From assembly GCA_030704845.1 (NCBI GenBank), contig JAUYKZ010000001.1, positions 621-64,620 on the forward strand: DNA of 64,000 nt. Reading direction: 5' to 3'. The DNA is from an archaeon. Lineage in GTDB: Archaea; Nanobdellota; Nanobdellia; Woesearchaeales; GW2011-AR9. The notes beneath the pieces were generated by a model. The model saw only the letters and a program-made list of their open reading frames with translations, did not search any database and was not told the origin of the DNA. Of this stretch, positions 8,390-58,094 are shown one piece after another. The position numbers were made by a program, and so were the translations under genes. Each line of letters opens with the position of its first letter. Positions within the stretch are counted from its first letter, which is position 1.

Positions 8390-8390
8390 A

Positions 8391-8957
8391 ATGTTGAAAC
8401 AAAAAAAAGGCGGGCTTGTAATTCAAGTTTTAGTATTGATGGTTCTGGTAGTAATTAGCAGCAGCGTTTTATTATTCCTAATTAATAAAGGCGTGATTAC
8501 TGTTAAAGAATCTGGACAAACAGAACCAATCCTTCAAGCAAATTTTTTACCAATCGCTAGAACTGGAACGGTGGCTGTTAAAGAATTTGCTTTCTGTAGT
8601 GATGTTAACGAAGATTTTGAATGTATCGGTCAGCGTTCACTGTTCCAGAAAGGAGATAAAGTTCACTTTAAGTTTGTTGTTGAAACTAATCCGTATGGGG
8701 GAGATGTCATCATTTTTCAGAATTACCGTTTAATTAATCCTAATGGGGTTATAATCTTGGAAGCTGAAGATATGAATAATTATCAGTATGATGCAAGAAG
8801 CGATAAAACATTGGAAGAAATAGTGTTTAAAGATTATATTATCACGGAAGAGAATGATATTCCTGGAACTTATAGGTTTGAATTACTTGTGAGCAATCCA
8901 TTATTAGAAAAGGATATAACTGTTACGGAGGAGTTCACTCTTGCTGGAAATGAATAA
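8391..8957 (+). CDS. Hypothetical membrane-anchored protein (188 aa)
   Basis: Starts 2 nt after the giant-protein stop. N-terminal transmembrane helix (LVIQVLVLMVLVVISSSVLLFLI). Overlaps the next gene by 17 nt, which suggests translational coupling. Confidence 0.55.
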   Translation: MLKQKKGGLVIQVLVLMVLVVISSSVLLFLINKGVITVKESGQTEPILQANFLPIARTGTVAVKEFAFCSDVNEDFECIGQRSLFQKGDKVHFKFVVETNPYGGDVIIFQNYRLINPNGVIILEAEDMNNYQYDARSDKTLEEIVFKDYIITEENDIPGTYRFELLVSNPLLEKDITVTEEFTLAGNE

Positions 8958-10647
8958 AATTTATTGGAAGAGAACTTTAGTATTACTTCTCCTACTTTCA
9001 ATAACATTAAGCATATCTGTATTTGCTGCAACTAAATCCCCTGAGGGATCAACAGCTAAGAGTATCAGTTTAGCTAGCGGAACAACTTGTAATAGTATCA
9101 CCCGATGTAAACAGATTCATCAAGCTTGGTTGCAGGTGTATGACTCTTTGGGTTACAGCAGGCTAGTGTTTAATCCGTCTTTAGGGAAATGGGTTAGTTT
9201 TGAGAGTGTTTATCTTCCCCAATTAGAAGATGCTCCATCTAGCACGGAAATTACCAATGAAGCAGAATCTTCAGAAGCAGTTAATCTTAATGAGATTAGT
9301 GGCAGGTATGCTGTTTTTATTAATGCTGCTGCTGGACATTTTGGAATCCAGCCGGCTTTAATTGCTGTTTTTATTAAGTATGAATCCGGGGGAAATCTTA
9401 AACCTTCCCCTACGGGTTGTCAAGGATTGATGCAGGTTTGTAACTGGAATGCTAATTATAATGGGTTCACCTCTGAGAATCCAAATATAAAAATTAAGGA
9501 TGATGCTCTCGATCCAGAAGCTAACATTTATGTGGGAACATACATATTGTCCCAGAAATTCAAAAGTGTTAGCGGATGTAAAGAAGGTAGTGATAGAATT
9601 AAATGTGTAATTGCAGCTTACAATGCGGGGGAAGGGCTGATTAATTATGCTACCAAGGGTTTTGAGGGTGAAGCAACTTGGCAGCAAGTAATAACCATAC
9701 TTCAAAATGAAGAGTTTGTGAAGGGATTAAAAGCATATTCTGATGAAAGATTTTGGATTAATTCGAATGGAGTAAACCAAACTTGGACTGATTCAGTTTC
9801 ATGTCAAGGTTTTAAAGATAAGGTTACTAGAAGAGGATGCAAGATGTACAATTTACAGTTTTATGTGAATAAAATCTTTGCTTCTGTATATGGAGCTTCT
9901 CAAGAACAGACTTCTTCAAGTGATGAAACAATTGCTACGGCAAGTGGCGTCGGTAAGAAAGTCTTACTAATTGGAGACTCTCATACGGCAGGTTATTATG
10001 GGGAATTACTCCATAACTCTTTGGTTAATGTAAATTATGAAGTGAGAACTTATGGTTGTGGTGGAAAAGTTGCAACAGCCTTTGCTAACAACAGGGAGGT
10101 TAGTTGTAGTCTGTCTTACAAATGGATTGGTAATGAAAAAACCTTGCTAACAAAACTCACTCCTAATTTTTTCCAGACTGAAATTAATTCATTCAATCCA
10201 GATATCGTTGTAATCAGTCTTGGGACAAATTATTGGCTCAGAGAAAGTAGTATTGCTAATCCAGGAAGCGTACATTATGCTTCTGTAAATTCATTATTGG
10301 ATAGTGCTCTAGGAAAAACTTGTTATTGGGTTGGGGCACCAGTGTCAACTATTAAATTTGGAGATAGTAAATTGAATTATGATGGTACTTGTACCAAAAA
10401 CCATCCCAATGATTATGAAACTAGTTGTTCTCTGGTGAATATACCTGGAATAAATCGGGGAGATATATACGATTATAATTTAGTTAATACAAATCTAAGA
10501 AAACTAGTTGAAGATAAAGGATGTAACTTTATAGACCCAACGCAGATTGCTGGTTTAACGGAAGATAAATTAAGAGACAAGTTACATTTTAATAATGACG
10601 GTTATACTATCTGGGCAAACTACGTCTTCAAGAAGATAATCAAGTAA
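8941..10647 (+). CDS. Secreted lytic transglycosylase (SLT domain) fused to a C-terminal SGNH/GDSL-type hydrolase domain
   Basis: Signal peptide is present. The SLT motifs are YESGGNL...GCQGLMQV and AYNAGEG. The C-terminal half carries the GDSH block (LLIGDSHTAGYYG) and the distal block (HFNNDGYTIWANYV) characteristic of SGNH hydrolases. Confidence 0.75.
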   Translation: MLEMNKIYWKRTLVLLLLLSITLSISVFAATKSPEGSTAKSISLASGTTCNSITRCKQIHQAWLQVYDSLGYSRLVFNPSLGKWVSFESVYLPQLEDAPSSTEITNEAESSEAVNLNEISGRYAVFINAAAGHFGIQPALIAVFIKYESGGNLKPSPTGCQGLMQVCNWNANYNGFTSENPNIKIKDDALDPEANIYVGTYILSQKFKSVSGCKEGSDRIKCVIAAYNAGEGLINYATKGFEGEATWQQVITILQNEEFVKGLKAYSDERFWINSNGVNQTWTDSVSCQGFKDKVTRRGCKMYNLQFYVNKIFASVYGASQEQTSSSDETIATASGVGKKVLLIGDSHTAGYYGELLHNSLVNVNYEVRTYGCGGKVATAFANNREVSCSLSYKWIGNEKTLLTKLTPNFFQTEINSFNPDIVVISLGTNYWLRESSIANPGSVHYASVNSLLDSALGKTCYWVGAPVSTIKFGDSKLNYDGTCTKNHPNDYETSCSLVNIPGINRGDIYDYNLVNTNLRKLVEDKGCNFIDPTQIAGLTEDKLRDKLHFNNDGYTIWANYVFKKIIK

Positions 10648-14658: not shown

Positions 14659-14806
14659 GCCCCAGTGGCTCAGCGGTTAGAGCATTCGGCTGTTAACCGG
14701 AGGGTCGTCGGTTCAAAACAGATCTCCCGGATCTGGTAGAGGGATTCGCGGTCACTCGCGTTCCCGCTCATAAGATTTGGAGATTGGGAAAGTCCGACCT
14801 GGGGCG
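14659..14806 (+). tRNA. tRNA-Asn (anticodon GUU) with a ~74-nt intron in the T-loop
   Basis: Acceptor GCCCCAG/CUGGGGC, D-arm GCUC-AGCGGUUAG-AGC, anticodon stem-loop UUCGG-CUGUUAA-CCGGA, variable loop GGGUC, T-stem GUCGG...CCGAC. The T-loop (UUCAAAA...U) is interrupted by 14719-14792. The intron ends can pair (CAGAUCUCC with GGAGAUUG), which is BHB-like. Confidence 0.75.
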
Positions 14807-18109: not shown

Positions 18110-18652
18110 ATGTCGAGCTTAAATCAACAAGAACCTGAAGAAAATGGCGGAGAATCTCCTAAAAATGAAGGAGAAACATCGTCTGATGAACTGAACGAAC
18201 TGAAAGAACTTCTCCAACGAACGCAGGCAAATTTTGAGAATTATCGAAAACAGACTGAGAAGCGGGTTGAAGAAATGATTCAAATAGCTACAAAAGGAAT
18301 AATCGCTCAAATTTTACCAATTCTTGATAATTTTGAGTTGGCCTTACAAACTGCTGAAACATCTTCGGAACAACCAGAATTCGTTCAAGGAATTACTTTG
18401 ATTCATTCCCAGTTAACCAAAACTCTCAAAGATAACGGGGTTAAAGAAATTAAGGTAGAAGGAACATTTGATCCGCATATTCATGAAGCATTAATGAAGA
18501 TGCCTTCGGAACTTCCAGAGAATTCAATCGTTGGGATTATTCAGAAAGGTTACACTCTTCATGGTAAGCTTTTACGTCCAGCAAGAGTAACATTAAGTGC
18601 AGGACAAATAAAATCAACAGACGAACAGAACAAAACTAAAAATAAAAACTAA
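18110..18652 (+). CDS. grpE: Nucleotide exchange factor GrpE
   Basis: Coiled-coil N-terminal region (ELKELLQRTQANFENYRKQTEKR) and a C-terminal beta-domain. Position is immediately upstream of dnaK. Confidence 0.85.
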   Translation: MSSLNQQEPEENGGESPKNEGETSSDELNELKELLQRTQANFENYRKQTEKRVEEMIQIATKGIIAQILPILDNFELALQTAETSSEQPEFVQGITLIHSQLTKTLKDNGVKEIKVEGTFDPHIHEALMKMPSELPENSIVGIIQKGYTLHGKLLRPARVTLSAGQIKSTDEQNKTKNKN

Positions 18653-18685
18653 AAATAAAAACTAATAATACTGGAGGAACATACA

Positions 18686-20557
18686 ATGACAAACGAACAA
18701 AAAGTAACAGGAGCAACAATTGGTATCGATTTAGGTACTACATTCTCTGCAATGGCAGTACTTGAAGGTGGAAAATCTACAATTATTACAAATTCTGAGG
18801 GAACAAGAACAACCCCAAGCGTAGTTCATATTAAAGATGGGGAAGTTATCGTCGGACAAATTGCCCGAAACCAGGCAATTATCGATCCAACTCATACCAT
18901 TAGATCTATTAAAAGAAAAATTGGAACTTCAGAGAAGATTAGGATAGATGATAAGGATTATACTCCTGAACAAATATCTGCAATGATTCTTCAGAAATTG
19001 AAACGGGATGCGGAAGCATATCTCGGTCAACCGGTAAAAAATGCGGTAGTTACCGTTCCAGCTTATTTCAATGATTCTCAACGTCAAGCAACAAAGAATG
19101 CTGGTGAAATTGCCGGTTTAAATGTTTTAAGAATTATTAACGAACCAACTGCTGCATCGTTAGCATATGGTTTAGATAAACAAGAAACAGAACATACTAT
19201 CTTAGTATTTGACTTTGGTGGCGGTACTTTTGACGTATCTATCCTTGAACTAGGAGATGGTATCTTTGAAGTAAAATCCACTAGCGGAGATAACCTGCTT
19301 GGTGGAGATGATGTTGATACCTTAATCATGGATTGGATTATGGGAAATTTCAAAAATTCAACCGGTATTGATTTAAGAAATGATCCTACAGCTATTCAAA
19401 GATTAAAAGAAGCTTCAGAGAAAGCTAAGATTGAATTATCTTCAAAGGCAAAAGTAGAGATAAGTATTCCATTTATCACTGCAGATCAGAATGGTCCAAA
19501 ACATATCAAAGAAGAATTGTCTAAAGCAAAATTCGAAGAATTAATTTCAGACATCTTAAGACGATTAGAAGGACCTGTTAAACAAGCATTGAAAGATGCA
19601 AGTTTAACTCCAGATAAACTTAATAAAGTAATTTTTGTCGGCGGTTCAACAAGAATCCCGGCTGTACAAGATTTAGTTAGAAAAATTACTGGCAAGGAAG
19701 GAGATAAATCTGTAAATCCGGATGAAGCTGTTGCAGTTGGTGCGGCAATTCAAGCGGGAGTTATCTCTGGGGATATCAAAGATGTTCTCTTACTTGACGT
19801 AACTCCATTAAGTTTTGGAATTGAAACTCTTGGGGGAGTATTCACAAAATTGATTGAAAGAAATACTACGATTCCGACAAAGAAATCTCAAGTATTCTCA
19901 ACAGCTGCCGATAATCAGCAAGCGGTAACAATCAGAGTTGCGCAAGGTGAACGTTCAATGTTTAATGATAACAAACACCTTGGTCAGTTCGATCTAATGG
20001 GAATCCCACCCGCTCCGCGAGGTGTACCTCAGATTGAAGTAGCTTTCGACATTGACGCTAACGGGATACTTAATGTAAGCGCAAAAGATATGGGTACTGG
20101 TAAAGAACAAAAAATCAAGATTACTGGTTCAAGTGCATTAAGTAAAGATGAAGTTGAAAAGATGCGACAAGATGCAGAACAAAATGCTGCTGACGATGAA
20201 AAAAAGAAAGCTAAAGTTGAAGCAGAAAATAATGCGGATGCAGTAGTTTATCAATCAAGAAAAGTCTTGGAAGAATTTAAAGATAAAGTTAACGAATCAA
20301 CCAAGACCAAAATTGAAGCAGCAATTGAAGCTGTTGAAAATTCCCGTAAAGATGGGAATGCTGAAGTGATTAACAAAAAAATTGAAGAATTAAACAAACT
20401 TATGCAGGAAATCGGTACTCAAATGTATCAAGAAGCTGCAGCACAACAACCTGAGCAAACTTCAGGAGAAGAAACGACTGGAAGTAATGCAAAAGATGAA
20501 AACATTGTTGATGCAGAGTTTAAAGAGAAAAAAGAGAAAAAAGAAGAGAAAGCTTAG
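18686..20557 (+). CDS. dnaK: Molecular chaperone DnaK (Hsp70)
   Basis: [26 protein letters not shown] and the substrate-binding domain motifs; 623 aa. Confidence 0.95.
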
Positions 20558-20591
20558 AGCTTTCTCTTAAAACCAATTCGGAGGTACGAAA

Positions 20592-21020
20592 ATGGTAGAA
20601 AAATATAGAAGATTAGTAGATGGTTTAGAGAATAATCTAGACGAAGGGTTACAACATGGTGACCAAGGCGGAGTTCCACAATTTGATTATGGGGGAAGGT
20701 TACCTCAATATGGCGGTAGCGGAAGATATTCTAGTTCAAATTCATTAGATGGGAGATTGGGATTAGCTGGTTATGTGCACAAGATGTTAGATAATGACGA
20801 TTATTTCTCTGCATTAACTGCTGTTGATGCTTCGAATGGTTTAAACGAACCAGGCGTTTCTAATCGCATACTTTATGCAGCTTTAGCAATTTACGGTGCA
20901 ACAAGATTAGGTGATTTAGATAAAGGGTGTAAGGCATACAATCTAATGGAAACTCTCGTTGCTTACTGTGTTAAAAACGCGGGTGATCTATTAAAGGGGT
21001 CTGAACAATCAGATGAGTAA
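20592..21020 (+). CDS. Hypothetical Gly/Ser-rich protein inserted between dnaK and dnaJ (142 aa)
   Basis: ORF with an RBS-like GGAGGT 8 nt upstream. Its stop overlaps the dnaJ start by 8 nt. No known motif. Confidence 0.45.
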   Translation: MVEKYRRLVDGLENNLDEGLQHGDQGGVPQFDYGGRLPQYGGSGRYSSSNSLDGRLGLAGYVHKMLDNDDYFSALTAVDASNGLNEPGVSNRILYAALAIYGATRLGDLDKGCKAYNLMETLVAYCVKNAGDLLKGSEQSDE

Positions 21021-22122
21021 GAATTACTATGAACTCCTTGGTGTTGATAAAAAATCAACCAAGGAAGAAATAAAGAAAGCCTACAAAAAGTTGGCGATGA
21101 AATATCATCCAGATAGAGCGCCAACTGATAAAAAGGCTGAGTATGAAGAAAAGTTTAAAGAAATAAATGAAGCAGCTTCAGTTCTAGGTGACGAGAAAAA
21201 ACGTCAACAGTATGATCAATTTGGTTCTGCAGGTCCACAAAGTGGCGGTTTCCAACAAGGTTACGATTTCTCAGATATCATGTCGCAATTTCGTTCTGGT
21301 TCTTTCGGAGATTTTGGCGACGTCTTTGATCAAATTTTTGGTGGCGGAGGAAGAAGAAGTAATACTCGAGCACGAAGAGGTTCAGATTTATTATACGAAA
21401 CTGAAATAACTTTAGAAGATGCAGCTAAAGGTGCTTCTAAAACAATTCCGCTAAATAAATTGGAATATTGTTCTGATTGTCAGGGGAAAGGAGCTCATAA
21501 ATTTGAAAGTTGTCATCATTGTCATGGTTCAGGTCAGGTGAAACAAACTCAAAGAACTCCATTCGGAATTTTCCAACAAACTGGTCCATGTCCATATTGT
21601 CACAGTAAAGGTGAATTGCCACAAGATTCATGTTCTAGTTGTAACGGTGACGGTTTAGTCAGAAAAAGAAAAGAGATTGAAGTTTCAATCCCCGCAGGTA
21701 TTCAAACGGGGATGCGTTTAAGGGTAACTCGGGAAGGAGAAGTTGGAGAGAATGGTGGGCCTTCAGGAGATTTATATGTTCAAGTTTCCGTTAGTGAACA
21801 TCGTTATTTTAAGAGGAGAAATGATGATTTACATATCACTGTCCCTATATCATATTCACAAGCTGTAATTGGTGACGAAATTGAAGTGCCAACAATTAAA
21901 GGGACTGCCGAATTAAAAATTCCTGCAGGCACGGATTCAGAAACAATCTTTAGAATGAAAGATAAGGGAATGCCTCATTTACAAAGTTCTGGTCATGGCG
22001 ACCAGATGGTTAAGGTAAAAATAGAAGTTCCTAAAAAGATAAACAAGAAACAGAAAGATTTGATTTCTCAATTGAAAGAAGAAAAACCAATCAAGAATTT
22101 TTTAAAGAAAATATTTGGATAA
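21013..22122 (+). CDS. dnaJ: Co-chaperone DnaJ (Hsp40)
   Basis: J-domain (YYELLGV...KYHPDR), a G/F-rich linker and four CxxCxGxG zinc-finger repeats. Confidence 0.95.
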   Translation: MSKNYYELLGVDKKSTKEEIKKAYKKLAMKYHPDRAPTDKKAEYEEKFKEINEAASVLGDEKKRQQYDQFGSAGPQSGGFQQGYDFSDIMSQFRSGSFGDFGDVFDQIFGGGGRRSNTRARRGSDLLYETEITLEDAAKGASKTIPLNKLEYCSDCQGKGAHKFESCHHCHGSGQVKQTQRTPFGIFQQTGPCPYCHSKGELPQDSCSSCNGDGLVRKRKEIEVSIPAGIQTGMRLRVTREGEVGENGGPSGDLYVQVSVSEHRYFKRRNDDLHITVPISYSQAVIGDEIEVPTIKGTAELKIPAGTDSETIFRMKDKGMPHLQSSGHGDQMVKVKIEVPKKINKKQKDLISQLKEEKPIKNFLKKIFG

Positions 22123-38449: not shown

Positions 38450-38551
38450 GCCAACGTGGCACAACTCGGTACTGCGCAAGCCTGGAACTCAGGAAAGTAT
38501 CAGCGAGCTTGTTTCCTTCGGGATATCCCGGTTCAAATCCGGGCGTTGGCG
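38450..38551 (+). tRNA. tRNA-Ser (anticodon GGA) with a canonical 18-nt intron after position 37
   Basis: Acceptor GCCAACG/CGUUGGC. D-arm GCA(C)-AACUCGGUA-(C)UGC. Anticodon stem CAAGC/GCUUG with loop CUGGAA-[CUCAGGAAAGUAUCAGCG]-A. Class II variable arm UCC-UUCG-GGA. T-arm CCCGG-UUCAAAU-CCGGG. Confidence 0.7.
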
Positions 38552-41716: not shown

Positions 41717-42169
41717 TTAGTTAGAATGTATTACAATTAATGACTGAGTTTTTTCAATACCTTCAATTTGTTGCAATTTACTTAATAGGACTTTATCAAA
41801 TTCTTCTACATCTTTAACTCTAACTAAAGCTATTAAATCTGTGCCACCCGAAACGATATCTACTTTCTCCACGAAATCATATTTTCCAACTTCTTTTGCA
41901 ATATCATACTGGGTCTTCTTTTTTTGTTTTAATAACGGCAAGTTTACAGAGATTAAAATGTATGAAGAAAATCCCTTATCAATTTTTTTATTATCCAACT
42001 CAATTGTATATCTAGTGATTACTTTCTCTTTCTTTAATTTTTGGATTCTGTGGTGGATTGTAGTTATCGGTAGCAATGTCTTTTTTGCGATTTGCCTAGT
42101 AGTATAATCGCCATGTTCTTTAAGGACTTCTAAGATTTTTTTATCTTTCTCGTCTATTGTTATTGGCAT
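41717..42169 (-). CDS. Lrp/AsnC-family transcriptional regulator
   Basis: N-terminal HTH (ILEVLKEHGDYTTRQIAKKTLLPITTIHHRIQKL) plus a C-terminal RAM-like domain; 150 aa. Confidence 0.75.
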   Translation of the reverse strand: MPITIDEKDKKILEVLKEHGDYTTRQIAKKTLLPITTIHHRIQKLKKEKVITRYTIELDNKKIDKGFSSYILISVNLPLLKQKKKTQYDIAKEVGKYDFVEKVDIVSGGTDLIALVRVKDVEEFDKVLLSKLQQIEGIEKTQSLIVIHSN

Positions 42170-42288
42170 GGTTGAACAGATGTTCCATTTATTATATAAA
42201 TCTTGCTATTTTTTGTGTTTTTTTCCACTATTTGTGGGGTATTTATTAATATTAGCAGACTTTACACTGGTGATAATCAAGATGAATC

Positions 42289-43380
42289 TTGATCTTGGAG
42301 GAAAATAAAATGACATTAACAGATCAAATAGAACACTCAACACAAACACAACGCATGTACGTATTTCCAGAAGGTTATACTCCTAAATTAGATTACTTCC
42401 AAACTGCAGAAGGAATTAAATTAATCAAAGATACTTTTGCTGGTGAACTGGCAGACAGATTAACTTTACAAAGAGTGACTGCTCCAAGATTTTTGATTGT
42501 CGGAACCGGATTACAGGATGATCTTGCGGGAACGCAAGTGCCGGTAAGTTTTCAGACTAAATTTTCTGATCAACCTGTCGAAGTTGTTCATAGCTTAGCT
42601 AAATGGAAAAGACAAACTTTAGGTAAATATAGGTTTCCTCACGGAACTGGTTTGTATACTGATATGGATGCTATAAGAAAAGATGAAGATGTAAGTCCAA
42701 TTCATAGCGTTTACGTAGATCAATGGGATTGGGAAAAAGTTATCTCGACTGAAGAAAGAACTTTACCATTTTTGCGAAGTATTGTAGATGGAATTTATCA
42801 AGCTTATCGGGAAACGGAAAAAGTTATTGCCAAAAGATTTCCGGAATTGAAAACTAGATTGCCAAAAGACATCGCTTTTATTCATTCTGAAGATCTAGAA
42901 AGAAGATTCCCAGAATTTACCCCAAAGGAAAGAGAAGATTTAGCTGCAAAAGAATATGGAGCTTTCTTTTTAGTCGGAATTGGTCATCCGTTAAAATCTG
43001 GACAACCACATGATTTAAGAGCTGCCGATTATGACGACTGGTCTGCCCAGACTGAATATGGCCGAGGTTTAAATGGTGATATTATTGTTTGGGATGATGT
43101 TCGAAAGAAATCATTGGAATTGTCTTCAATGGGAATCAGAGTAAATGCCGAATCTTTAAGCAGACAATTGGAGATGGCTGGATTGACAGAAAGAAAAAAC
43201 CTTGATTTTCATAAAGGAATCCTGGAAGACCGGATACCCTTATCCGTCGGCGGAGGGATAGGTCAATCTAGAACTTGTATGTATCTATTGCAGAAAGCCC
43301 ATATTGGAGAAGTTCAATCCAGTGTCTGGCCAAAGGAAGTTGAAGAAGAATTTGTGAGGAGAGAAGTGCCTCTTCTTTAA
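42289..43380 (+). CDS. asnA: Aspartate--ammonia ligase (asparagine synthetase A)
   Basis: C-terminal GGGIGQSRTCMYLLQKAHIGEVQ matches the AsnA signature; class II aaRS-like core. The start may be the MTLTDQ Met at 42310. Confidence 0.85.
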   Translation: MILEENKMTLTDQIEHSTQTQRMYVFPEGYTPKLDYFQTAEGIKLIKDTFAGELADRLTLQRVTAPRFLIVGTGLQDDLAGTQVPVSFQTKFSDQPVEVVHSLAKWKRQTLGKYRFPHGTGLYTDMDAIRKDEDVSPIHSVYVDQWDWEKVISTEERTLPFLRSIVDGIYQAYRETEKVIAKRFPELKTRLPKDIAFIHSEDLERRFPEFTPKEREDLAAKEYGAFFLVGIGHPLKSGQPHDLRAADYDDWSAQTEYGRGLNGDIIVWDDVRKKSLELSSMGIRVNAESLSRQLEMAGLTERKNLDFHKGILEDRIPLSVGGGIGQSRTCMYLLQKAHIGEVQSSVWPKEVEEEFVRREVPLL

Positions 43381-43422
43381 TTGAATAGAACACTTAAAGT
43401 ATGAAATAAAATTATAACTAAA

Positions 43423-44088
43423 ATGATACCCTCATATGTTTATGAACAAGCTAGAAAACTAGATATACCCCTTAAAACAGTTTATTTATCAGTAAGCACA
43501 GATACTTGTAATGAAAAAATTGAAGCACTAAGAAAAATAGATCCTAACCAACATTGGAACTTGTATCAAGTTGTGAAATCGGTCTATGTTTTGGTTGATT
43601 GGGATCCGTTCATCTTTGTTTTTCCAGAATTAACAACCAGATTTAATGGAAAAAGGAAACGGGTAAGTGGAGGAACTTTAAGAGCAAGAAGATCACTTTC
43701 GCATATAGGCAGAATCGATAAAGACCTGGTGTCTAAATTATTTGATCAGAAAGGATTGACCTATAAAGATCCAACTCCTTATGTTGGTGCTGACGGCATT
43801 CCAGATTCAATGGAATATGGAACCTGCACCCCATTCATATCCCCATTTGAAATGGAAAGATTAAATTATATTTCACCGGTTCCAGTTAAAGGAATATTTA
43901 TCCACGATGATTCCAGACTGGATAATCTTGTTGCTGACATTTCAATTGGAGGAAAAGGCGAAGAAGCTCACAAAGTTTCAATGCACTTGCCTTATCATGG
44001 AATTTATGATATTCTTAAAGCTGAGTTTGGAGATAAGGTCCATAAAATAAAAATATGGGGGAAATATTGTCTTACTGGCAAGGAATAA
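43423..44088 (+). CDS. Hypothetical protein between asnA and asnS (221 aa); possibly a YbaK/ProX-like deacylase (weak)
   Basis: ORF with GTCTPF and ISIGGKG segments faintly reminiscent of the YbaK fold; no firm motif. Confidence 0.4.
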   Translation: MIPSYVYEQARKLDIPLKTVYLSVSTDTCNEKIEALRKIDPNQHWNLYQVVKSVYVLVDWDPFIFVFPELTTRFNGKRKRVSGGTLRARRSLSHIGRIDKDLVSKLFDQKGLTYKDPTPYVGADGIPDSMEYGTCTPFISPFEMERLNYISPVPVKGIFIHDDSRLDNLVADISIGGKGEEAHKVSMHLPYHGIYDILKAEFGDKVHKIKIWGKYCLTGKE

Positions 44089-44150
44089 TTTGAGCTAACC
44101 TTTCCTACGGCAAGGAAATCTTTTTAAACGTATCAAGACTTTAAGGGATA

Positions 44151-45497
44151 ATGGCGAAAACAATTGCAAACCAAAAGACGAAAACAACGGCTAAATCCCC
44201 CAAATTTGTCTCAATTCAGGAAGCGATAAATGCTGGTGACGGGAAAACTGTATCTATTCGTGGCTGGGTTTATCGAGAAAGGGGTAGTAACAAATTCAAA
44301 TTCGTCGTATTAAGAGATTCCTCAAACATAATCCAATGTATCTTTGATCGGAAAGATTTTGAAAAATCTTGGGAAGAAATTGATCAATTACAAGTTGAAT
44401 GTTCATTACATCTTACTGGAACAATATCTAAAGATGAAAGAGCACCAACTGGTTTTGAACTTCACGTTACAAAATATGAATTAATCGGTAAAAGTGACAG
44501 TTATCCGATAACAAAAGATCAATCTGTAGAATTTCTTGCCGATAACAGGCATCTATGGCTTAGAAGTAGAAGGATGACTTCTATCTTAAAAATTAGATCA
44601 ACTGTTTTTGGAGCAATTGATGAATATTTTAAAGGGGAAGGATTCTATGAATATCATTCTCCTATTTTCCAAGCAGTACAATGTGAAGGTGGAGCTGAAT
44701 TATTCAGCGTAGATTATTTTGGCAAGAAAGACGTTTTCCTTGGTCAAACCTGGCAACTTTATGCCGAACCAGCAATTTTTGCTTTAGAAAAGATTTATAC
44801 CATCTCGCCAAGTTTCCGTGCAGAAAAATCTAAAACTTCAAGACATCTTACAGAATACTGGCACGCTGAAATGGAAATGGCCTGGGCAGATTTTGATGAC
44901 ATCATGGATCATGGAGAAAAACTACTCAAACATATTGTTAAAACAGTTCTCGCGACAAATTTTGAAGAACTTAAACTTCTTGAAAGAGACATTTCAAAAT
45001 TGAAACCAATTGTGGAAAAACCATTTATTAGAATGACCTACGATGATGCATTGAAAATTCTTAAAGATAAATGTAAAATGAAAGTAGAATGGGGAAAGGA
45101 TTTACGGACAATTGAAGAAGAAGAACTCACTAAACTTTATGATGTTCCAGTAATCTGCACAAGATACCCTAAAAAAGTTAAAGCTTTTTACATGACGGAA
45201 GATCCTAAAAACCCGGATGTTGTTTTGGGCTGTGATTTCCTTGCTCCAGAAGGATATGGTGAAATTATTGGTGGTTCTCATCGAGAAGCTGATTTGGAAA
45301 AAGTTAAGCAACGCCTTATTGATGACGGAGAAGATCCTATCGAATACGAATTCTATTTAGATACTAGAAGATACGGAAGTGTTCCACATGGTGGATTTGG
45401 AATGGGAGTTGAAAGAGTAGTTCGTTGGATTTGTGGTCTTGAGAATATTAAAGATGCAATACCTTTCCCGAGAACAATGGAACGATACAAACCATAA
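44151..45497 (+). CDS. asnS: Class IIb aminoacyl-tRNA synthetase, most likely asparaginyl-tRNA synthetase (AsnRS/AspRS family)
   Basis: N-terminal OB-fold anticodon-binding domain. Motif 2 is FRAEKSKTSRHLTEYWHAEMEM. Motif 3 is GSVPHGGFGMGVERVVRW. Located 3' of asnA. Confidence 0.8.
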   Translation: MAKTIANQKTKTTAKSPKFVSIQEAINAGDGKTVSIRGWVYRERGSNKFKFVVLRDSSNIIQCIFDRKDFEKSWEEIDQLQVECSLHLTGTISKDERAPTGFELHVTKYELIGKSDSYPITKDQSVEFLADNRHLWLRSRRMTSILKIRSTVFGAIDEYFKGEGFYEYHSPIFQAVQCEGGAELFSVDYFGKKDVFLGQTWQLYAEPAIFALEKIYTISPSFRAEKSKTSRHLTEYWHAEMEMAWADFDDIMDHGEKLLKHIVKTVLATNFEELKLLERDISKLKPIVEKPFIRMTYDDALKILKDKCKMKVEWGKDLRTIEEEELTKLYDVPVICTRYPKKVKAFYMTEDPKNPDVVLGCDFLAPEGYGEIIGGSHREADLEKVKQRLIDDGEDPIEYEFYLDTRRYGSVPHGGFGMGVERVVRWICGLENIKDAIPFPRTMERYKP

Positions 45498-47048: not shown

Positions 47049-47441
47049 ATGGCATTTGAATTTTTAGTTTTAATAGGAAGAATACTTTTTGGCGGTTTTT
47101 TTATAAATAGTGGGATAAATCATCTTACAAAAAGAGAAGGTATGGCTCAATACGCACAATCAAAAGGTGTTCCGGCAGCAAAATTTTTTGTGGTTGTTTC
47201 TGGATTGATGATTCTTTTGGCTGGATTATATATCGTTTTTGGAGTATGGCCGCAGGTTGGCGTATTATTAATTGCAGCATTTCTTCTACCAGTATCTTTA
47301 GTGATGCATAACTTTTGGTCAATAAAAGATCCTCAACAAAAAATGACTGAAATGATTAGCTTCATGAAGAATATGGCTTTGCTTGGAGCTGCATTAATGT
47401 TTCTAGGAATAGCTACGCCTTGGGCTTTTAGTTTATTTTAA
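47049..47441 (+). CDS. DoxX-family membrane protein
   Basis: Four transmembrane helices and a DoxX-like RILFGGFFINSGINHL segment. Confidence 0.65.
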   Translation: MAFEFLVLIGRILFGGFFINSGINHLTKREGMAQYAQSKGVPAAKFFVVVSGLMILLAGLYIVFGVWPQVGVLLIAAFLLPVSLVMHNFWSIKDPQQKMTEMISFMKNMALLGAALMFLGIATPWAFSLF

Positions 47442-47955
47442 CACTATAACTAAGCCCATCTTTTATTTTTATTATTTTTGTTTTTAATTTTGAATTGTTT
47501 AAGATAGCTTCTTTAAAATCTTGACATCCTTCAGCAGAAATATTATCTGCGATTATTACCCCGCCTTTCTTCGATAATCTTAAACAATCATCTAGAATTT
47601 TTAAATAACCGTTTTTATAGAAATCGATAAAAATAAAATCAAAATAATTGGTTGGTAAGGATTTAACGACTTCGACACCATCTCCGGTGATAATCTTTCC
47701 ATCGATTGAAAATTTAGTATAATTAATGATGGCTTCTTCAACAATTTTAATGTTTATATCAATTGTAATCAATTCTCCGCCTTCGCTGCCAAGAATTATG
47801 CCACTATATCCATTTGCAGTTCCTAATTCTAAGATTGTTTTAGGTTGATGTTCTTTTACTTTTTGTAAAAGCCATTCTCCTTTCTCTTTTCCAATGATAG
47901 GAATGCCTCTACGTTTACTTTCTTCTTCAAGGTCATCCATCATTTTCCAGTTCAT
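47428..47955 (-). CDS. Class I SAM-dependent O-methyltransferase (family 3-like)
   Basis: ILELGTANGYSGIIL glycine-rich SAM motif and a downstream acidic loop. Confidence 0.7.
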   Translation of the reverse strand: MNWKMMDDLEEESKRRGIPIIGKEKGEWLLQKVKEHQPKTILELGTANGYSGIILGSEGGELITIDINIKIVEEAIINYTKFSIDGKIITGDGVEVVKSLPTNYFDFIFIDFYKNGYLKILDDCLRLSKKGGVIIADNISAEGCQDFKEAILNNSKLKTKIIKIKDGLSYSVKIN

Positions 47956-48132: not shown

Positions 48133-48384
48133 ATGGGCATACTTAAAACTCTTGGCAAAAACCTTCTAGTGATATTAATCGGTGGGTTAACTGGCGGAAT
48201 TATTTCAATTCCTTTTGCTATCGTCTGGATGAAAAGTATCGGCCCTCAAGTTGGTTTAGGAATTATCGCTTTATTACCAATAATTTTGATTCTTTATTTT
48301 ATTATAGGAGCTTTCATTGGTGCAGTTCTAGGATTATTTATCTACCATCTATTTATCAAACGAAAATCTAAAACCAAACGTTAG
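48133..48384 (+). CDS. Small membrane protein (83 aa, 2 transmembrane helices)
   Basis: Two hydrophobic helices and a basic C-terminal tail. Confidence 0.45.
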   Translation: MGILKTLGKNLLVILIGGLTGGIISIPFAIVWMKSIGPQVGLGIIALLPIILILYFIIGAFIGAVLGLFIYHLFIKRKSKTKR

Positions 48385-48400
48385 AAAAACATAAATCAAA

Positions 48401-49540
48401 CTATTCACTTGCTTCTTGTTTTTCTAACCACTTCTGTTTAAGAATTTTAAAAGTCTCTTCCGAGATAGAACTTCTAATATCTTCCATTAATTTACAATAA
48501 AAGTAAAGGTTGTGGTAAGTCATTAATGAATAAAATAATAATTCTTTTACTTTATAGAGATGATGAATATATCCTTTTGAATAATTCTTACAGACGAAAC
48601 AGGAACAATTTGGATCTAATGATGAATTATCCTCTTTAAATTGCGAATTACCAATTCTCACTCTAAACTTGTTATCGACATTTCCGCCAGATTCTGGTCT
48701 AACAAAAAAGTAACCCAATCTAGCTAGTCGTGTTGGAAGAACACAATCAAATGTATCCGCGCCGCATTCAACATAATCAAAAATATCTTCCACGCTACCT
48801 ATCCCTAACATGTGTTTAGGTTTATCTTCTGGAAGAAATGTCATGGTATGTTTAACTATCCCATGAATCTCTTTGGTAGGATCACCAAATATTCCGCCAA
48901 TACCATAGCCGGGGAAGGGGAGAGAAGCGATAAATTTGGCTGATTCTTCTCTAAGATCTTTAAATCTACCTCCTTGAACGATTCCAAAGAGTGCTTGATT
49001 TGAATTGCTTTTTTGATGTTCTTTTAAACATCTTAATGTCCATTGATGAGTTCTTCCCATGGCTTCTTTTGTTCTTTCAAGACTGTCATTAAAATGGACG
49101 CATTCGTCAAAAGTGAAAATGATATCTGCTCCGATATTCTGCTGAATTTGCATAGATTTTTCCGGAGTAAACCTGTGAGAAGAGTTGTCAATGTAAGATT
49201 TGAAATCAACTCCTTCGTCATCTGTCTTTGAAAGTCGACCGTTTAAACTGAATACTTGAAATCCTCCGCTGTCGGTAAATGTCGTTCCATCCCATGCCAT
49301 GAATGAATTTAATCCTCCTAATTTAGAAATAATTTCATCTCCTGGTTTAAGATAAAGATGATAAGTATTCGCTAAAGTTGCTTCGTATCCAATTTCTTTT
49401 AATTGTTGTGCAGATAATCCTTTGATAGCTGCTCGTGTTGCAACCGGAATAAAAGCTGGCGTTTTAAGATTACCATGGGCGGTTGTAATTATACCACATC
49501 TAGCCAGGCCGTCTTTGTGAATTATTTGAAAGGATAGCAT
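48401..49540 (-). CDS. tgt: tRNA-guanine transglycosylase, bacterial QueTgt-like
   Basis: MLSFQIIHKDGLARCG...TPAFIPVAT...DSGGFQV and the zinc site CSCFVCKNY...H. The N-terminal region resembles bacterial Tgt rather than archaeosine ArcTGT. Confidence 0.85.
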   Translation of the reverse strand: MLSFQIIHKDGLARCGIITTAHGNLKTPAFIPVATRAAIKGLSAQQLKEIGYEATLANTYHLYLKPGDEIISKLGGLNSFMAWDGTTFTDSGGFQVFSLNGRLSKTDDEGVDFKSYIDNSSHRFTPEKSMQIQQNIGADIIFTFDECVHFNDSLERTKEAMGRTHQWTLRCLKEHQKSNSNQALFGIVQGGRFKDLREESAKFIASLPFPGYGIGGIFGDPTKEIHGIVKHTMTFLPEDKPKHMLGIGSVEDIFDYVECGADTFDCVLPTRLARLGYFFVRPESGGNVDNKFRVRIGNSQFKEDNSSLDPNCSCFVCKNYSKGYIHHLYKVKELLFYSLMTYHNLYFYCKLMEDIRSSISEETFKILKQKWLEKQEASE

Positions 49541-49545
49541 TTTTG

Positions 49546-50205
49546 TTATATCCGTTTATACCAATTACCATCATCACTTTCCACAAATCCCATCTGTTTA
49601 GCAATCTGGTCATATCGCTCAAAAAGTCTTAAACTAGAGGTTTTAGACTTCCATTCGTTGTTAACTGATCCTTGAATGCCAAGACATTTTGTTCTTAAAT
49701 TTTTAGCAATATACTCAACGCTTTTTACAAGAAGTTCTTCCCATTTTAATGGAGCTAATCCCCTGGAGTGAAAACATTTACTTTTATCGCTGTGTCTAAT
49801 CCTAGCTTGGATACCTTGAATTTGAGTAATCATCAACGTATCAACCGCGGGACATTTTATCCCGGTAATGGCTTCTGGCCAACCTTTGTACAATAAAGCA
49901 ATCCCAACCGGTGCATCAAGATAAATAACATTATTATAAGATCGACCATCTGGAAAGATTGTTCTTGACCAATAATCATCTCTTCCATGATCGAATTCTG
50001 CTCTTAACGGGGATAATTCATAATCACTTTTTCTTTTTTCAGAAAGTATTACTCCTTCCTTTGTAGAAGATTCTAATAGTTCTTCAAGAGGGATATGATT
50101 TAGTATCTTACTCCCAGAAACACTTCTTATTAGTCTCTCTTCCAATATTCGAACTTTTTTTTCTTTATCCCCAATTAATCTAATTAATTCTTTGATTATT
50201 CTCAT
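49546..50205 (-). CDS. Hypothetical protein, paralog A of a tandem pair (219 aa)
   Basis: Shares blocks with the next gene: GRDDYWSRTIF, LALLYKGWP, ITQIQGI, HSRGLAPLKWEELLVK. Separated from tgt by 5 nt. Confidence 0.55.
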   Translation of the reverse strand: MRIIKELIRLIGDKEKKVRILEERLIRSVSGSKILNHIPLEELLESSTKEGVILSEKRKSDYELSPLRAEFDHGRDDYWSRTIFPDGRSYNNVIYLDAPVGIALLYKGWPEAITGIKCPAVDTLMITQIQGIQARIRHSDKSKCFHSRGLAPLKWEELLVKSVEYIAKNLRTKCLGIQGSVNNEWKSKTSSLRLFERYDQIAKQMGFVESDDGNWYKRI

Positions 50206-50861
50206 TGCAGTTCCTTATACCAATTACTATCTGTTTCTTTAATATATCCAATTTTTTCAGCCGTTTCATCATATCTTTTTTTAACATTAGATCTAAATTG
50301 ATTTGAACCAAAACACCACCCGTTATTAGTTGATCCTTGTATTAAAATTCTGGTATATCCCGCTTTCTTAGAAATTTCTTCCATTAATTTAACTAAAAGT
50401 TCTTCCCATTTTAATGGAGCTAACCCTCTTGAATGTTTATGGCCAACGATTTTGTAACCTTTCCTAATTTCGGCTTTTACTCCTTGGATTTGAATTATTT
50501 GAACCGCATCTTCTTCGTCAGATTCCACTGTTGAACAGATTACCGCATTTGGTAATCCTTTGTATAATAAAGCGAGACCACTACGACTGTCCAAATAAAT
50601 ATCGTATCCTAGATTTTCTTTGAATATTCTTTGTGACCAATAATCATCATGTCCACAATTTAAGTTAAATTTAGGTTTAACTAGTCCTATCTTATAATCT
50701 TTTAATCTTTTATCAGAAAGCTTAACATTTTCAAGAGCTGAATCCTTAAGAAGTTTTTCAAGGTCTATGGTATGGTGTAATTTACCAACTACTTCTTGTA
50801 GTCTTCTATCTGGGTCCAATTTAATTCTCGAAATTGAGGGAATTAAGTCTTCTGTTTCCAT
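50202..50861 (-). CDS. Hypothetical protein, paralog B of a tandem pair (219 aa)
   Basis: GHDDYWSQRIF, LALLYKGLP, IQIQGV, HSRGLAPLKWEELLVK. Overlaps paralog A by 4 nt. Confidence 0.55.
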   Translation of the reverse strand: METEDLIPSISRIKLDPDRRLQEVVGKLHHTIDLEKLLKDSALENVKLSDKRLKDYKIGLVKPKFNLNCGHDDYWSQRIFKENLGYDIYLDSRSGLALLYKGLPNAVICSTVESDEEDAVQIIQIQGVKAEIRKGYKIVGHKHSRGLAPLKWEELLVKLMEEISKKAGYTRILIQGSTNNGWCFGSNQFRSNVKKRYDETAEKIGYIKETDSNWYKELQ

Positions 50862-51895: not shown

Positions 51896-52387
51896 ATGAC
51901 AATTGACGAAAATGTTTTGGAACAACTTTCAGTTGCTAGAACTTTTGCTGAAAGAGGAAATGTCTCATCAATGGACTGTGTTCTTAATTATGTAAGAGCC
52001 TGTTCTAAAAGAACCGGCGAAAATTTGTCTAATGAAGTAAAAGAAATTGAAAAAGCGGGGTATAGGGCAGCTATTCCTATTGAACTTTTGATTGCTAGAT
52101 ATCATGCAGAAACTGGCGAGATTGAAATTGCAGAACAGATTCTTTCTCTTGTAAAAGTATATGCTAACAGAACTGGTGAAGACGTTTCTGATGATATCAA
52201 AGAAATTGAGAAATCTGGATATATTGCGGCAATTCCGGTAGAACTTTCGGTTGCAAGATATCATGCTTTGGATGGTAATTCTCCCGCTGCAGAGAATTTC
52301 ATATCTTATGCAATGCGATATGCTAGGAAAGCAGGACAAGATATTTCTGAGATGGTTGCCGAAATTAGGGCATTGATTAAAAAATAA
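51896..52387 (+). CDS. Hypothetical protein built from three ~48-aa tandem repeats
   Basis: The unit RTGE(N/D)(L/V)S(N/D)(E/D)(V/I)KEIEK(A/S)GY(R/I)AAIP(I/V)EL(L/S)(I/V)ARYHA recurs three times. Confidence 0.5.
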   Translation: MTIDENVLEQLSVARTFAERGNVSSMDCVLNYVRACSKRTGENLSNEVKEIEKAGYRAAIPIELLIARYHAETGEIEIAEQILSLVKVYANRTGEDVSDDIKEIEKSGYIAAIPVELSVARYHALDGNSPAAENFISYAMRYARKAGQDISEMVAEIRALIKK

Positions 52388-56738: not shown

Positions 56739-57248
56739 ATGAATTTGCAAATAGGAGTATTCGGAAGTGCATCTACGACTAATAAGAAATACCTAGATCT
56801 TGCTCAGGAAACTGGGAAACTTTTAGCTGAAAATGAAGTGACTATTTTTTGTGGTAATGTTACAGGGATTTTAGGCGCAACCATTAAGGGAGCTAAATTA
56901 GTTAATGGAAAGACAGTTGTTGTTGCTCCATATGATCATAAAAATTTAGATTTATCTAATGTTGATGTTTACATCGCAAGTTCATTAAATTGGTTCTCTA
57001 GAGGTCCATCATTGGTAAATTCTTTGAACGGAATAATTGTAATCAGCGGAGGCGTTGGAACTCTAACTGAAATGGCCTACGCCTGGTGGGAAGAAGTACC
57101 TATTGTAATTGTAAGAACTGGGGGGATTAATGACCAATATATTGGAAAAACATTTGATCCAAGGAAGAAGCATAAACTTTTAGGTGCAGATACACCTAAA
57201 GAAGCAGTTGATTTATTACTGAAAACGATCTCTAAAAGAAAAAGTTAG
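56739..57248 (+). CDS. LOG/TIGR00725-family Rossmann-fold nucleotide-binding protein
   Basis: IGVFGSAS...FCGNVTG...VISGGVGTLTEM motifs. Confidence 0.7.
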   Translation: MNLQIGVFGSASTTNKKYLDLAQETGKLLAENEVTIFCGNVTGILGATIKGAKLVNGKTVVVAPYDHKNLDLSNVDVYIASSLNWFSRGPSLVNSLNGIIVISGGVGTLTEMAYAWWEEVPIVIVRTGGINDQYIGKTFDPRKKHKLLGADTPKEAVDLLLKTISKRKS

Positions 57249-57269: not shown

Positions 57270-58094
57270 TTAAGAATTCTTTTTAGTTAACTGCAAATAA
57301 TTTTCAGAAGATATTAACGATTTTCCTATTTTTTGTTCTAGTTCTTTTCGAGTATTCTTCGCGATATTACCGCCTTCCTTAGCAGTCTCTTTTAGTTCTG
57401 GAACACCTTGTGCGTTTTTGGCAATAGTGATATCTGTAGTTGCCTTCTCTCCAACCATATTCAAGATCAATTCCCAATCCGTCATATAATCTCTTAGATT
57501 CTGATTAGGCTTGGCTAAATCTTTAAACTTCTTGTATTCTCCGACGGTCTTACCAAATGCTGCTTTAGAGATTTCGTCTGTTAATATTGCAAAGTCTCTC
57601 TTTTCTTCAGCACCCCTGTTTTTCCATTCGTTAGTAAGATCCTGCCTTATTGCAATACCTCTCAGCCTTTTGTCAATCCACTCTTTAGGGTAACCCTTTA
57701 GTTTATAGTATTCTTTTACTCTATCTTGAGCAAGCTCTGGGTTTTCAATTTCTTCGATACGCTCTTTTCCAATTTGAGCTAACCACATCTTGAATGGTTC
57801 AGCTTTCTTGGAAGGTATGGATTGTATAATTCTAAAAATAGACCTAGTATTAGCACAGTCTGTTAGTCTCATCTTACCATCTGTAGCAGGTAATTTCAAC
57901 TGGTGACAAATTGTCACCACTTCGCTTCCTTCTTCATTTAGCCTTTGACTAAGTTTATTCCAATATTTTCTAGCCATTAGGTGGTCTTCTTGCTCAGTCA
58001 AAGCTGTAACTATATCAACTACAGAAAAATACCATTCATTATTAAACCAAATTCTTCTAATTTTCTTATCCTGAAACACAATTAACGACTTCAT
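57270..58094 (-). CDS. Bro-N domain protein (phage antirepressor-like) with a C-terminal KilA-C/ORF6C-like region
   Basis: N-terminal FQDKKIRRIWFNNEWYFSVVDIVTALTE matches Bro-N. Confidence 0.65.
   Translation of the reverse strand: MKSLIVFQDKKIRRIWFNNEWYFSVVDIVTALTEQEDHLMARKYWNKLSQRLNEEGSEVVTICHQLKLPATDGKMRLTDCANTRSIFRIIQSIPSKKAEPFKMWLAQIGKERIEEIENPELAQDRVKEYYKLKGYPKEWIDKRLRGIAIRQDLTNEWKNRGAEEKRDFAILTDEISKAAFGKTVGEYKKFKDLAKPNQNLRDYMTDWELILNMVGEKATTDITIAKNAQGVPELKETAKEGGNIAKNTRKELEQKIGKSLISSENYLQLTKKNS

Follow-up and report, generated by a model that had tools for sequence, protein, structure and literature searches.

We analysed a 64-kb window of archaeal DNA (the whole stretch examined, 64,000 nucleotides of contig JAUYKZ010000001.1), focusing on a compact locus on its minus strand where two tandem genes of one family, referred to here as parA and parB, precede tgt, the gene for a tRNA guanosine transglycosylase (Table 1). 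The start of parB overlaps the stop of parA by 4 nt (ATGA), and 5 nt (CAAAA) lie between the stop codon of parB and the ATG of tgt, so that the description given in the initial annotation, two same-strand 219-aa paralogs joined to each other and to tgt by 4-nt and 5-nt junctions, was confirmed. The two products are 42% identical across 210 residues, much more than chance would explain (E = 6e-49). All of the shared blocks quoted in that annotation were found, namely GHDDYWSQRIF in one paralog and GRDDYWSRTIF in the other, [LI]ALLYKG[LW]P and I[IT]QIQG[VI], together with the block HSRGLAPLKWEELLVK, which is the same in both proteins. The possibility that a mis-called start hides a long N-terminal domain was rejected: in both open reading frames (ORFs), no start codon is available between the preceding in-frame stop and the one used, and ParA and ParB are therefore genuinely short forms.

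The 5 nt ahead of tgt leave no space for a separate promoter in the parB/tgt gap. A TATA-box-like motif is located upstream of parA and oligo-T runs follow tgt, both being motif-level calls in an AT-rich genome in which such motifs are common. From this promoter motif and the gene packing, the simplest reading is that parA, parB and tgt are probably transcribed together, from the candidate promoter upstream of parA, as one leaderless transcript, which agrees with the operon that had been proposed. The GC content of the three genes, overall and at third codon positions (GC3), is within about 1.3 standard deviations of the window mean, and recent horizontal transfer of parA, parB and tgt was rejected on these native values. 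In the lineage of the window, an ORF for a small predicted membrane protein sits between tgt and a methyltransferase gene; its counterpart at the syntenic position in a relative (L016) shows 77% identity, so this ORF is a real conserved gene. The locus is flanked by genes for TruD, asparaginyl-tRNA synthetase (AsnRS), AsnA and an AsnC regulator, which are also found, with some substitutions, in relatives. The host belongs to the DPANN archaea and is Woesearchaeota-like: the window contains archaeal genes for GatE, an ATP-dependent DNA ligase, SRP54, TrmB and Lrp/AsnC regulators, pyruvoyl arginine decarboxylase (PvlArgDC), PAC2 and an archaeal prepilin peptidase, in keeping with the archaeal origin that had been assumed.

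Table 1. Features of the parA-parB-tgt locus and its downstream flank (positions are those of the window)
Feature	Position	Strand	Description
parA	50861..50202	minus	219-aa ORF; short form lacking the ~130-aa N-terminal extension
parB	50205..49546	minus	219-aa ORF; tandem paralog of parA
tgt	49540..48401	minus	379-aa ORF; bacterial-type tRNA guanosine(34) transglycosylase
Candidate archaeal promoter, TATA-box-like TTTATAAA	50884..50891	minus	Centred ~27 nt before the start codon of parA; motif-based call
Candidate archaeal terminator, oligo-T runs (TTTTT, TTTT, TTTT)	48363..48389	minus	Runs begin 12 nt past the tgt stop; motif-based call
Small predicted membrane protein	48133..48384	plus	83-aa ORF; convergent with tgt
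TrmR-like (Methyltransf_3) S-adenosylmethionine (SAM) methyltransferase	47428..47955	minus	Pfam PF01596, 5e-16

Tgt is of the bacterial type, as had been concluded from its N-terminus and zinc site. It matches the bacterial tRNA guanosine(34) transglycosylase equivalog TIGR00430 over its full length (467.1 bits, cut-off 306.75) and the Pfam TGT family (PF01702; 443 bits, 9e-133), whereas it scores 119.9 bits against the ArcTGT model TIGR00432 (cut-off 350) and 26.4 bits against the DpdA model NF041059 (cut-off 200), and the ArcTGT and DpdA-like identities were both rejected on these scores. The protein also lacks the C-terminal extension of ArcTGT (C1/C2/PUA domains). Among solved structures, Zymomonas mobilis TGT was matched with E = 4e-95 and eukaryotic QTRT1 with 4e-75, but Pyrococcus horikoshii ArcTGT only with 7e-13. 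The catalytic residues D90 and D265 align with D102 and D280 in Z. mobilis TGT, and the zinc-site residues C312/C314/C317/H343 with its C318/C320/C323/H349; these catalytic Asp and zinc residues are kept in 116–120 of the 121 clade members. The substrate residues D156, C158 and Q203 of Z. mobilis are likewise conserved, as D145, C147 and Q189. In tRNAs with a GUN anticodon, the enzyme would replace G34 by a 7-deazaguanine base, using the known mechanism with an Asp nucleophile. In our scan of window ORFs, we found no dpd-like neighbours and no dpdB-like or que genes, including those for QueA and QueH.

The same Tgt had been presented as an acquired enzyme; an acquisition as a special event is not supported. 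Its orthologues in Woesearchaeota/Nanoarchaeia number in the hundreds, at 59–84% identity; the best 120 database relatives are 57–84% identical to it, and the named ones among them come from Woesearchaeota, Nanoarchaeia or Nanoarchaeota. A bacterial Tgt in an archaeon is a known, lineage-wide trait of Woesearchaeota and adds little that is new alone, since bacterial-type Tgt in DPANN genomes had already been reported by Castelle et al. 2021 (PMC8204110). Taken with its native base composition, the Tgt of the window would be an ordinary, vertically inherited bacterial-type enzyme of Woesearchaeota with a housekeeping character.

One segment of this enzyme departs from the bacterial pattern. The residues G229-G230-L231-A232-V233-G234-E235 of Z. 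mobilis TGT, which we take to be part of the substrate pocket and to include the peptide switch (L231/A232), are replaced in the window Tgt (residues 211–221) by GGIFGD, with one residue deleted. In the Woesearchaeal Tgt clade, the segment reads IG(S/G)IFGDP, and DEC (around residues 143–148 of the window Tgt) is often DQC. Because this pocket segment is altered, the inserted base, and with it the base specificity of Tgt, may differ from the canonical preQ1. The remodelled pocket is common to the whole Woesearchaeal clade, most members of which do not have the paralogs, and it raises the question of which 7-deazaguanine is inserted by Tgt across this archaeal clade.

To describe the usual surroundings of tgt in Woesearchaeota, four independent Tgt loci were inspected. 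In L030 (3898–6661) and L031 (1793–4556), whose Tgt is 65% identical to that of the window, a UPF0176/rhodanese gene, tgt and a Methyltransf_3 gene form, in this order, a tight operon whose junctions are a gap of 2 nt and an overlap of 4 nt. A rhodanese gene is also found directly upstream of tgt in L027 (4848–9742; Tgt 77% identical), where its product scores 249 bits against the NCBIfam model of TrhO (cut-off 170). L028 (6001–7670; Tgt 66% identical) has a response-regulator gene ahead of tgt and a Methyltransf_3 gene that overlaps the 3' end of tgt. The methyltransferase of the window is 39–58% identical to its orthologues in those loci, which immediately follow tgt in L028, L030 and L031. 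Its best matches in the Protein Data Bank (PDB) are a tRNA 5-hydroxyuridine methyltransferase (8k1f, 3e-19) and Bacillus subtilis YrrM/TrmR (5zw3, 7e-17); it scores below the NCBIfam equivalog level, and catechol O-methyltransferases score just slightly lower than TrmR. No TrhO homologue was found within the 64-kb window.

TrhO makes 5-hydroxyuridine at position 34 (ho5U34), which TrmR methylates to 5-methoxyuridine (mo5U34) (Sakai et al. 2019, PMC6599085). The TrhO-like, Tgt and TrmR-like proteins of these archaea all resemble bacterial wobble-position tRNA-modification enzymes, and because their genes occur together, the typical Woesearchaeal arrangement would be a bacterial-style wobble-position operon, which suggests that these archaea decode with bacterial-style position-34 chemistry. 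This arrangement is not described in those portions of the 2021 DPANN paper (PMC8204110) that were consulted. The paralogs had been regarded as partners of Tgt; the other Woesearchaeota tgt loci do not contain the paralog family and have TrhO-like and TrmR-like genes instead.

The genes for an AsnC-type regulator, AsnA and asparaginyl-tRNA synthetase (41717–45497) are syntenic with tgt across Woesearchaeota (L027, L028 and L030, with AsnB instead of AsnA in L027). tRNA-Asn is one of the classical substrates of Tgt, and the synteny could be coincidence.

The family to which ParA and ParB belong is large. An exhaustive profile search of cluster representatives yielded 671 representatives at E <= 1e-3, of which 115 were at E <= 1e-30. 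Most members are 300–400 aa long and possess an extra N-terminal region of ~130 aa. The conserved core is characterized by the motifs LSxKRxxDY, WLDxPxGxxLxYKGxPNA, QxQG, RGLAPLDWxKLL, IQxGxNNxW, YDxxAxRLGF and NWxK, all of which are kept in ParA and ParB, including the invariant and nearly invariant residues. Consistent with the earlier statement that the paralogs could not be assigned to any family, neither of them matched a Pfam or NCBIfam model. When 70 family members were compared with Pfam at E <= 0.01 and E <= 10, no GNAT model was matched; four members alone gave matches, to a SAM-methyltransferase domain at the C-terminus. The family likewise matched nothing when PDB sequences were searched with a profile, and it has no PADLOC or PHROGs match. 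The isoelectric points (pI) of the two window copies are 8.6 and 9.2, and those of the family range from 5.3 to 9.6.

The four members with matches to methyltransferase domains (P0077, P0103, P0135 and P0140; ~600 aa) are fusions of the family domain to a C-terminal class-I SAM methyltransferase, and they have lost the QxQG glycine and the NNxW motif. Given these losses, the GNAT-like part of the fusions may have become inactive or taken on another role.

An AlphaFold model of ParA was built from a 70-sequence alignment (predicted local distance difference test score, 92.2; predicted template modelling score, 0.88). Along the chain, three antiparallel strands are followed by a hairpin insertion and the SRGLAP loop; then come two long helices separated by a strand, and one more strand at the end. 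This predicted order of strands and helices fits the GNAT core, a mixed beta-sheet fold with the beta4-alpha3-beta5-alpha4-beta6 arrangement. A Foldseek search, one of the checks suggested with the initial annotation, gave a consistent answer with marginal scores: all 50 of the 50 PDB matches listed are GNAT acetyltransferases (GCN5/PCAF, Naa40/50/60, Ard1, RimI, AtaT and the Elp3 KAT domain), at E values of about 1e-3 and template modelling (TM) scores of 0.30–0.35, and GNAT-type proteins dominate the named matches in BFVD. An hhalign comparison of the family with Escherichia coli RimI, for which an approximate sequence was used, returned a probability of 0.6%. The conserved x-[SA]-R-G-L-A-P loop lies right before the helix at residues 152–166. 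G146 and A148 of this loop fit the G-x-A part of the pyrophosphate-binding motif Q/R-x-x-G-x-G/A, which in GNAT proteins lies between beta4 and alpha3, and neither Q nor R is found at the first position. The C-terminal Y-D-x-x-A-x-x-x-G-[FY] segment (YDxxA) resembles GNAT motif B. With moderate confidence, we regard the paralogs as a divergent GNAT-fold family that is probably acyl-CoA dependent.

We examined the gene neighbourhoods of the family at about 15 independent loci; the contigs of several further look-ups were too short to help. Scans with one narrow peptide pattern gave five genome loci and four metagenome loci, and a scan of viral contigs with the same single narrow pattern gave no family locus. 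The hosts include Woesearchaeota (L002), an unclassified archaeon (L004), Patescibacteria (L005), Saccharimonadales and Saccharimonas (L006 and L025), unclassified bacteria (L003 and L007) and an ankyrin-rich bacterium (L021 and L023), in addition to several metagenome contigs. At none of the approximately 15 independent loci was a tgt neighbour present within the flanks, and all-against-all clustering of the neighbours identified no recurrent partner, on which ground a conserved partner gene for the family was rejected. The proposal that Tgt works with two dedicated novel partners is not borne out: the family has 671 representatives, and among the loci inspected a link to tgt was seen only in one shallow clade.

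Two features of the bacterial, Patescibacteria-like locus L007 deserve separate mention. This locus contains tgt, a NUDIX gene and queA ~9 kb from the family member on the other strand; it was rejected as a case of tgt linkage, being too far off and unique. In the same metagenome-assembled genome (MAG), where genes for sortase and DivIC also occur, a gene of the Pup-ligase family (PF03136) lies 50 nt downstream of the family member on the same strand (L007:10001–12615).

Gene order similar to that of the window was found in two other genomes. In L013–L018, which seemingly represent one genome (best non-self match, P0005) and share synteny with the window (TruD, M42 peptidase and PvlArgDC), one family copy lies 26 nt upstream of tgt. 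L029, a contig of 765 nt, contains a single family copy (P0037) and, 40 nt on, the start of a tgt reading MFSFQITHK. Among the loci inspected, a family gene thus precedes tgt in three genomes, that of the window and two further members of its shallow clade, and nowhere beyond. The initial annotation had held that its proposal would fall if the operon were confined to this genome; the order does extend to these two close relatives, but no further.

Within this clade, the family has changed rapidly. Between the window and L013–L016, Tgt is 84% identical, PvlArgDC 85%, the M42 peptidase 78% and TruD 68%, whereas the GNAT-like proteins are only 39–42% identical. In a neighbour-joining tree, in which branches are long, parA and parB are sisters and their group is sister to the P0005/P0037 pair. 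This tree and the low identity point to a lineage-specific duplication and fast evolution. A second tandem pair was found in a Woesearchaeota MAG (L002:6534–8609), where the two copies are of the long type that includes the N-terminal domain; because the L002 copies group together in the tree, this duplication is independent of that in the window. The L002 pair adjoins a Fic gene, a gene for a MoxR-type AAA ATPase and genes for several paralogous small proteins, all starting MTIEDSL.

From these results, we consider it probable (roughly 0.6) that ParA and ParB act as stand-alone accessory acyltransferases, which are co-expressed with tgt by an accident of gene order and do not belong to a dedicated Tgt pathway. 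In the shallow sub-lineage of the window, the slot upstream of tgt would have come to hold a fast-evolving member of the GNAT-fold family, and a tandem duplication of that gene in the window genome would have produced parA and parB. Both products are predicted acyl-CoA-dependent N-acyltransferases, and both are probably active, because both keep all of the conserved residues. Several points weigh against this reading. The number of independent family loci with long flanks is only modest. The GNAT assignment rests on the weak structural matches described above and has no sequence-profile support. The tight coupling of the genes and the order of a GNAT-like gene followed by tgt, kept in three genomes despite ~60% divergence, could reflect selection for co-expression. 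Finally, the slot is occupied in relatives by a tRNA-modification gene (TrhO-like), and the neighbourhood is tRNA-related (TruD and AsnRS).

Among the alternatives, the one that survives best, although we regard it as unlikely, is that ParA and ParB are GNAT proteins with which episymbionts interact, poison or defend, that they evolve fast, might acetylate targets in a host or competitor or act as GNAT toxins, and came to lie beside tgt by chance. The occurrence of the family in DPANN archaea, Patescibacteria/Saccharimonadia and an ankyrin-rich bacterium would suit such a role, as would its very long branches, its repeated independent tandem duplications (window and L002) and a rate of evolution much faster than that of neighbouring genes; Fic, SUKH/SMI1 and ankyrin proteins are among the neighbours at family loci, and the toxin AtaT is among the fold matches. 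However, the negative PADLOC and PHROGs results speak against it, no small antitoxin-like gene was seen adjacent, the N-termini are hydrophilic with no apparent signal peptide, the viral-contig scan was empty (with its narrow search pattern) and the base composition of the genes is native.

We consider it less likely still that ParA and ParB are tRNA-directed acyltransferases that replaced the TrhO-like gene and act in the wobble-modification programme of Tgt, either on a tRNA base or on aminoacyl-tRNA (cf. TmcA, the Elp3 KAT domain and TacT/AtaT). The genomic setting favours this view: the paralogs occupy the position of the TrhO-like gene of L027, L030 and L031, they are apparently co-transcribed with tgt, the gene order has been retained in three genomes despite strong divergence, and the surroundings are rich in tRNA-related genes (TruD, the TrmR-like gene and AsnRS). 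The Elp3 KAT domain, AtaT and a viral 'tRNA carboxymethyluridine synthase' are found among the GNAT fold matches, but the Elp3 and AtaT matches are no better than generic GNAT ones; similarly, both window copies are basic, but the pI values of the family extend well into the acidic range. The family at large has no tRNA-gene context, and such rapid divergence would be unusual for enzymes that recognize conserved tRNA.

A more far-reaching version, in which ParA, ParB and the single-copy relatives ahead of tgt found a new GNAT-fold clade that in this Woesearchaeal sub-lineage has been recruited into the bacterial-type wobble-modification operon and acylates a Q-family or other position-34 nucleoside or a free-base precursor, yielding, with the remodelled pocket, an archaeal tRNA modification not seen in bacteria, appears quite improbable to us. 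The proposal that the three genes form a DNA-targeting, DpdA-like 7-deazaguanine system, or a novel queuine/preQ salvage route with two dedicated partners, can practically be dismissed: nothing other than the tight gene packing and the remodelled Tgt pocket favours it, and against it stand the DpdA score of 26 bits (cut-off 200) beside 467 bits for TIGR00430, the presence of the same pocket throughout a clade most of which has no paralogs, the lack of dpdB-like or que genes among the window ORFs scanned and the separation of the family from tgt elsewhere.

Several other features of the window were recorded. Two tRNA matches were detected by Rfam and missed by ARAGORN run in bacterial mode: a 102-nt tRNA at 38450–38551, which probably contains an intron, and a partial match of 62 nt at 14664–14725 (model positions 6–65). 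A bacterial-type GrpE-DnaK-DnaJ cluster is encoded at 18110–22122, with a 142-aa ORF that has no family assignment between dnaK and dnaJ. At 3050–10647, the gene for a 1779-aa protein, the sole domain match of which is a purple-acid-phosphatase N-terminal domain, is followed by that for a 568-aa protein with SLT lytic-transglycosylase and GDSL lipase domains. Murein-degrading proteins of this type have reportedly been tied to Woesearchaeota that possibly associate with bacteria. Bacterial GrpE-DnaK-DnaJ and SLT/GDSL-type traits are described for small-genome Woesearchaeota by Castelle et al. 2021 (PMC8204110). Upstream of parA on the plus strand, a 163-aa protein without a confident family (51896–52387) contains, as judged by eye, internal repeats of ~60 aa with the pattern ...R(T/K)GE(N/D)(L/V)S..(V/I)KEIEK(A/S)GY.AAIP(I/V)EL..ARYHA; a shorter homologue of 108 aa is encoded at the syntenic place in L013. 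A Bro-N domain protein is encoded on the minus strand at 57270–58094 and adjoins a SLOG cluster4 (LOG-like) protein encoded on the plus strand at 56739–57248. The Bro-N domain is known mainly from phage and virus-related genes, and the pair may be a remnant of a mobile element or a defence system.

Three smaller additions to what is known come from this analysis: an unannotated GNAT-like family, a wobble operon of Woesearchaeota and a remodelled Tgt pocket, none of which is yet a new system. The first of these is a large, very divergent and fast-evolving family of ultra-small symbionts (DPANN and Patescibacteria) that is covered by none of Pfam, NCBIfam, PADLOC and PHROGs.

Comparison with known systems places each component as follows. 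The paralogs share with the GNAT superfamily (GCN5/PCAF, Naa40/Naa50, Ard1 and RimI) the order of structural elements, the fold matches and a G-x-A loop before a long helix; unlike it, they have no profile similarity to the GNAT Pfam families, reach only the low TM scores given above, possess an extra beta-hairpin (residues about 130–142) inserted after the QxQG strand and ahead of the putative CoA loop, and carry the family-specific motifs LSxKRxxDY, WLDxPxGxxLxYKGxPNA and NNxW and, in most members, the ~130-aa N-terminal domain. Tgt corresponds to the bacterial enzyme (Z. mobilis, PDB 1P0D and related) in its full-length equivalog match and in its catalytic, substrate and CxCxxC...H zinc residues, and differs from it in its archaeal host and in the pocket, where GGLAVGE (peptide switch L231/A232, V233 and E235) contrasts with the Woesearchaeal IG(S/G)IFGDP, in which one residue is deleted. 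The locus shares a bacterial-type Tgt with the DPANN queuosine genes of Castelle et al. 2021 (PMC8204110), but that work describes tgt as co-located with the QueA and QueH genes, whereas the TrhO-like/Tgt/TrmR-like arrangement is that of the related Woesearchaeota and, in part, of the window. With respect to the bacterial TrhO/TrmR pathway for ho5U/mo5U34 (PMC6599085), the relatives have the TrhO-like gene directly upstream and the TrmR-like gene directly downstream of tgt; the window keeps the TrmR-like gene, but two GNAT-like genes stand in the slot of the TrhO-like gene.

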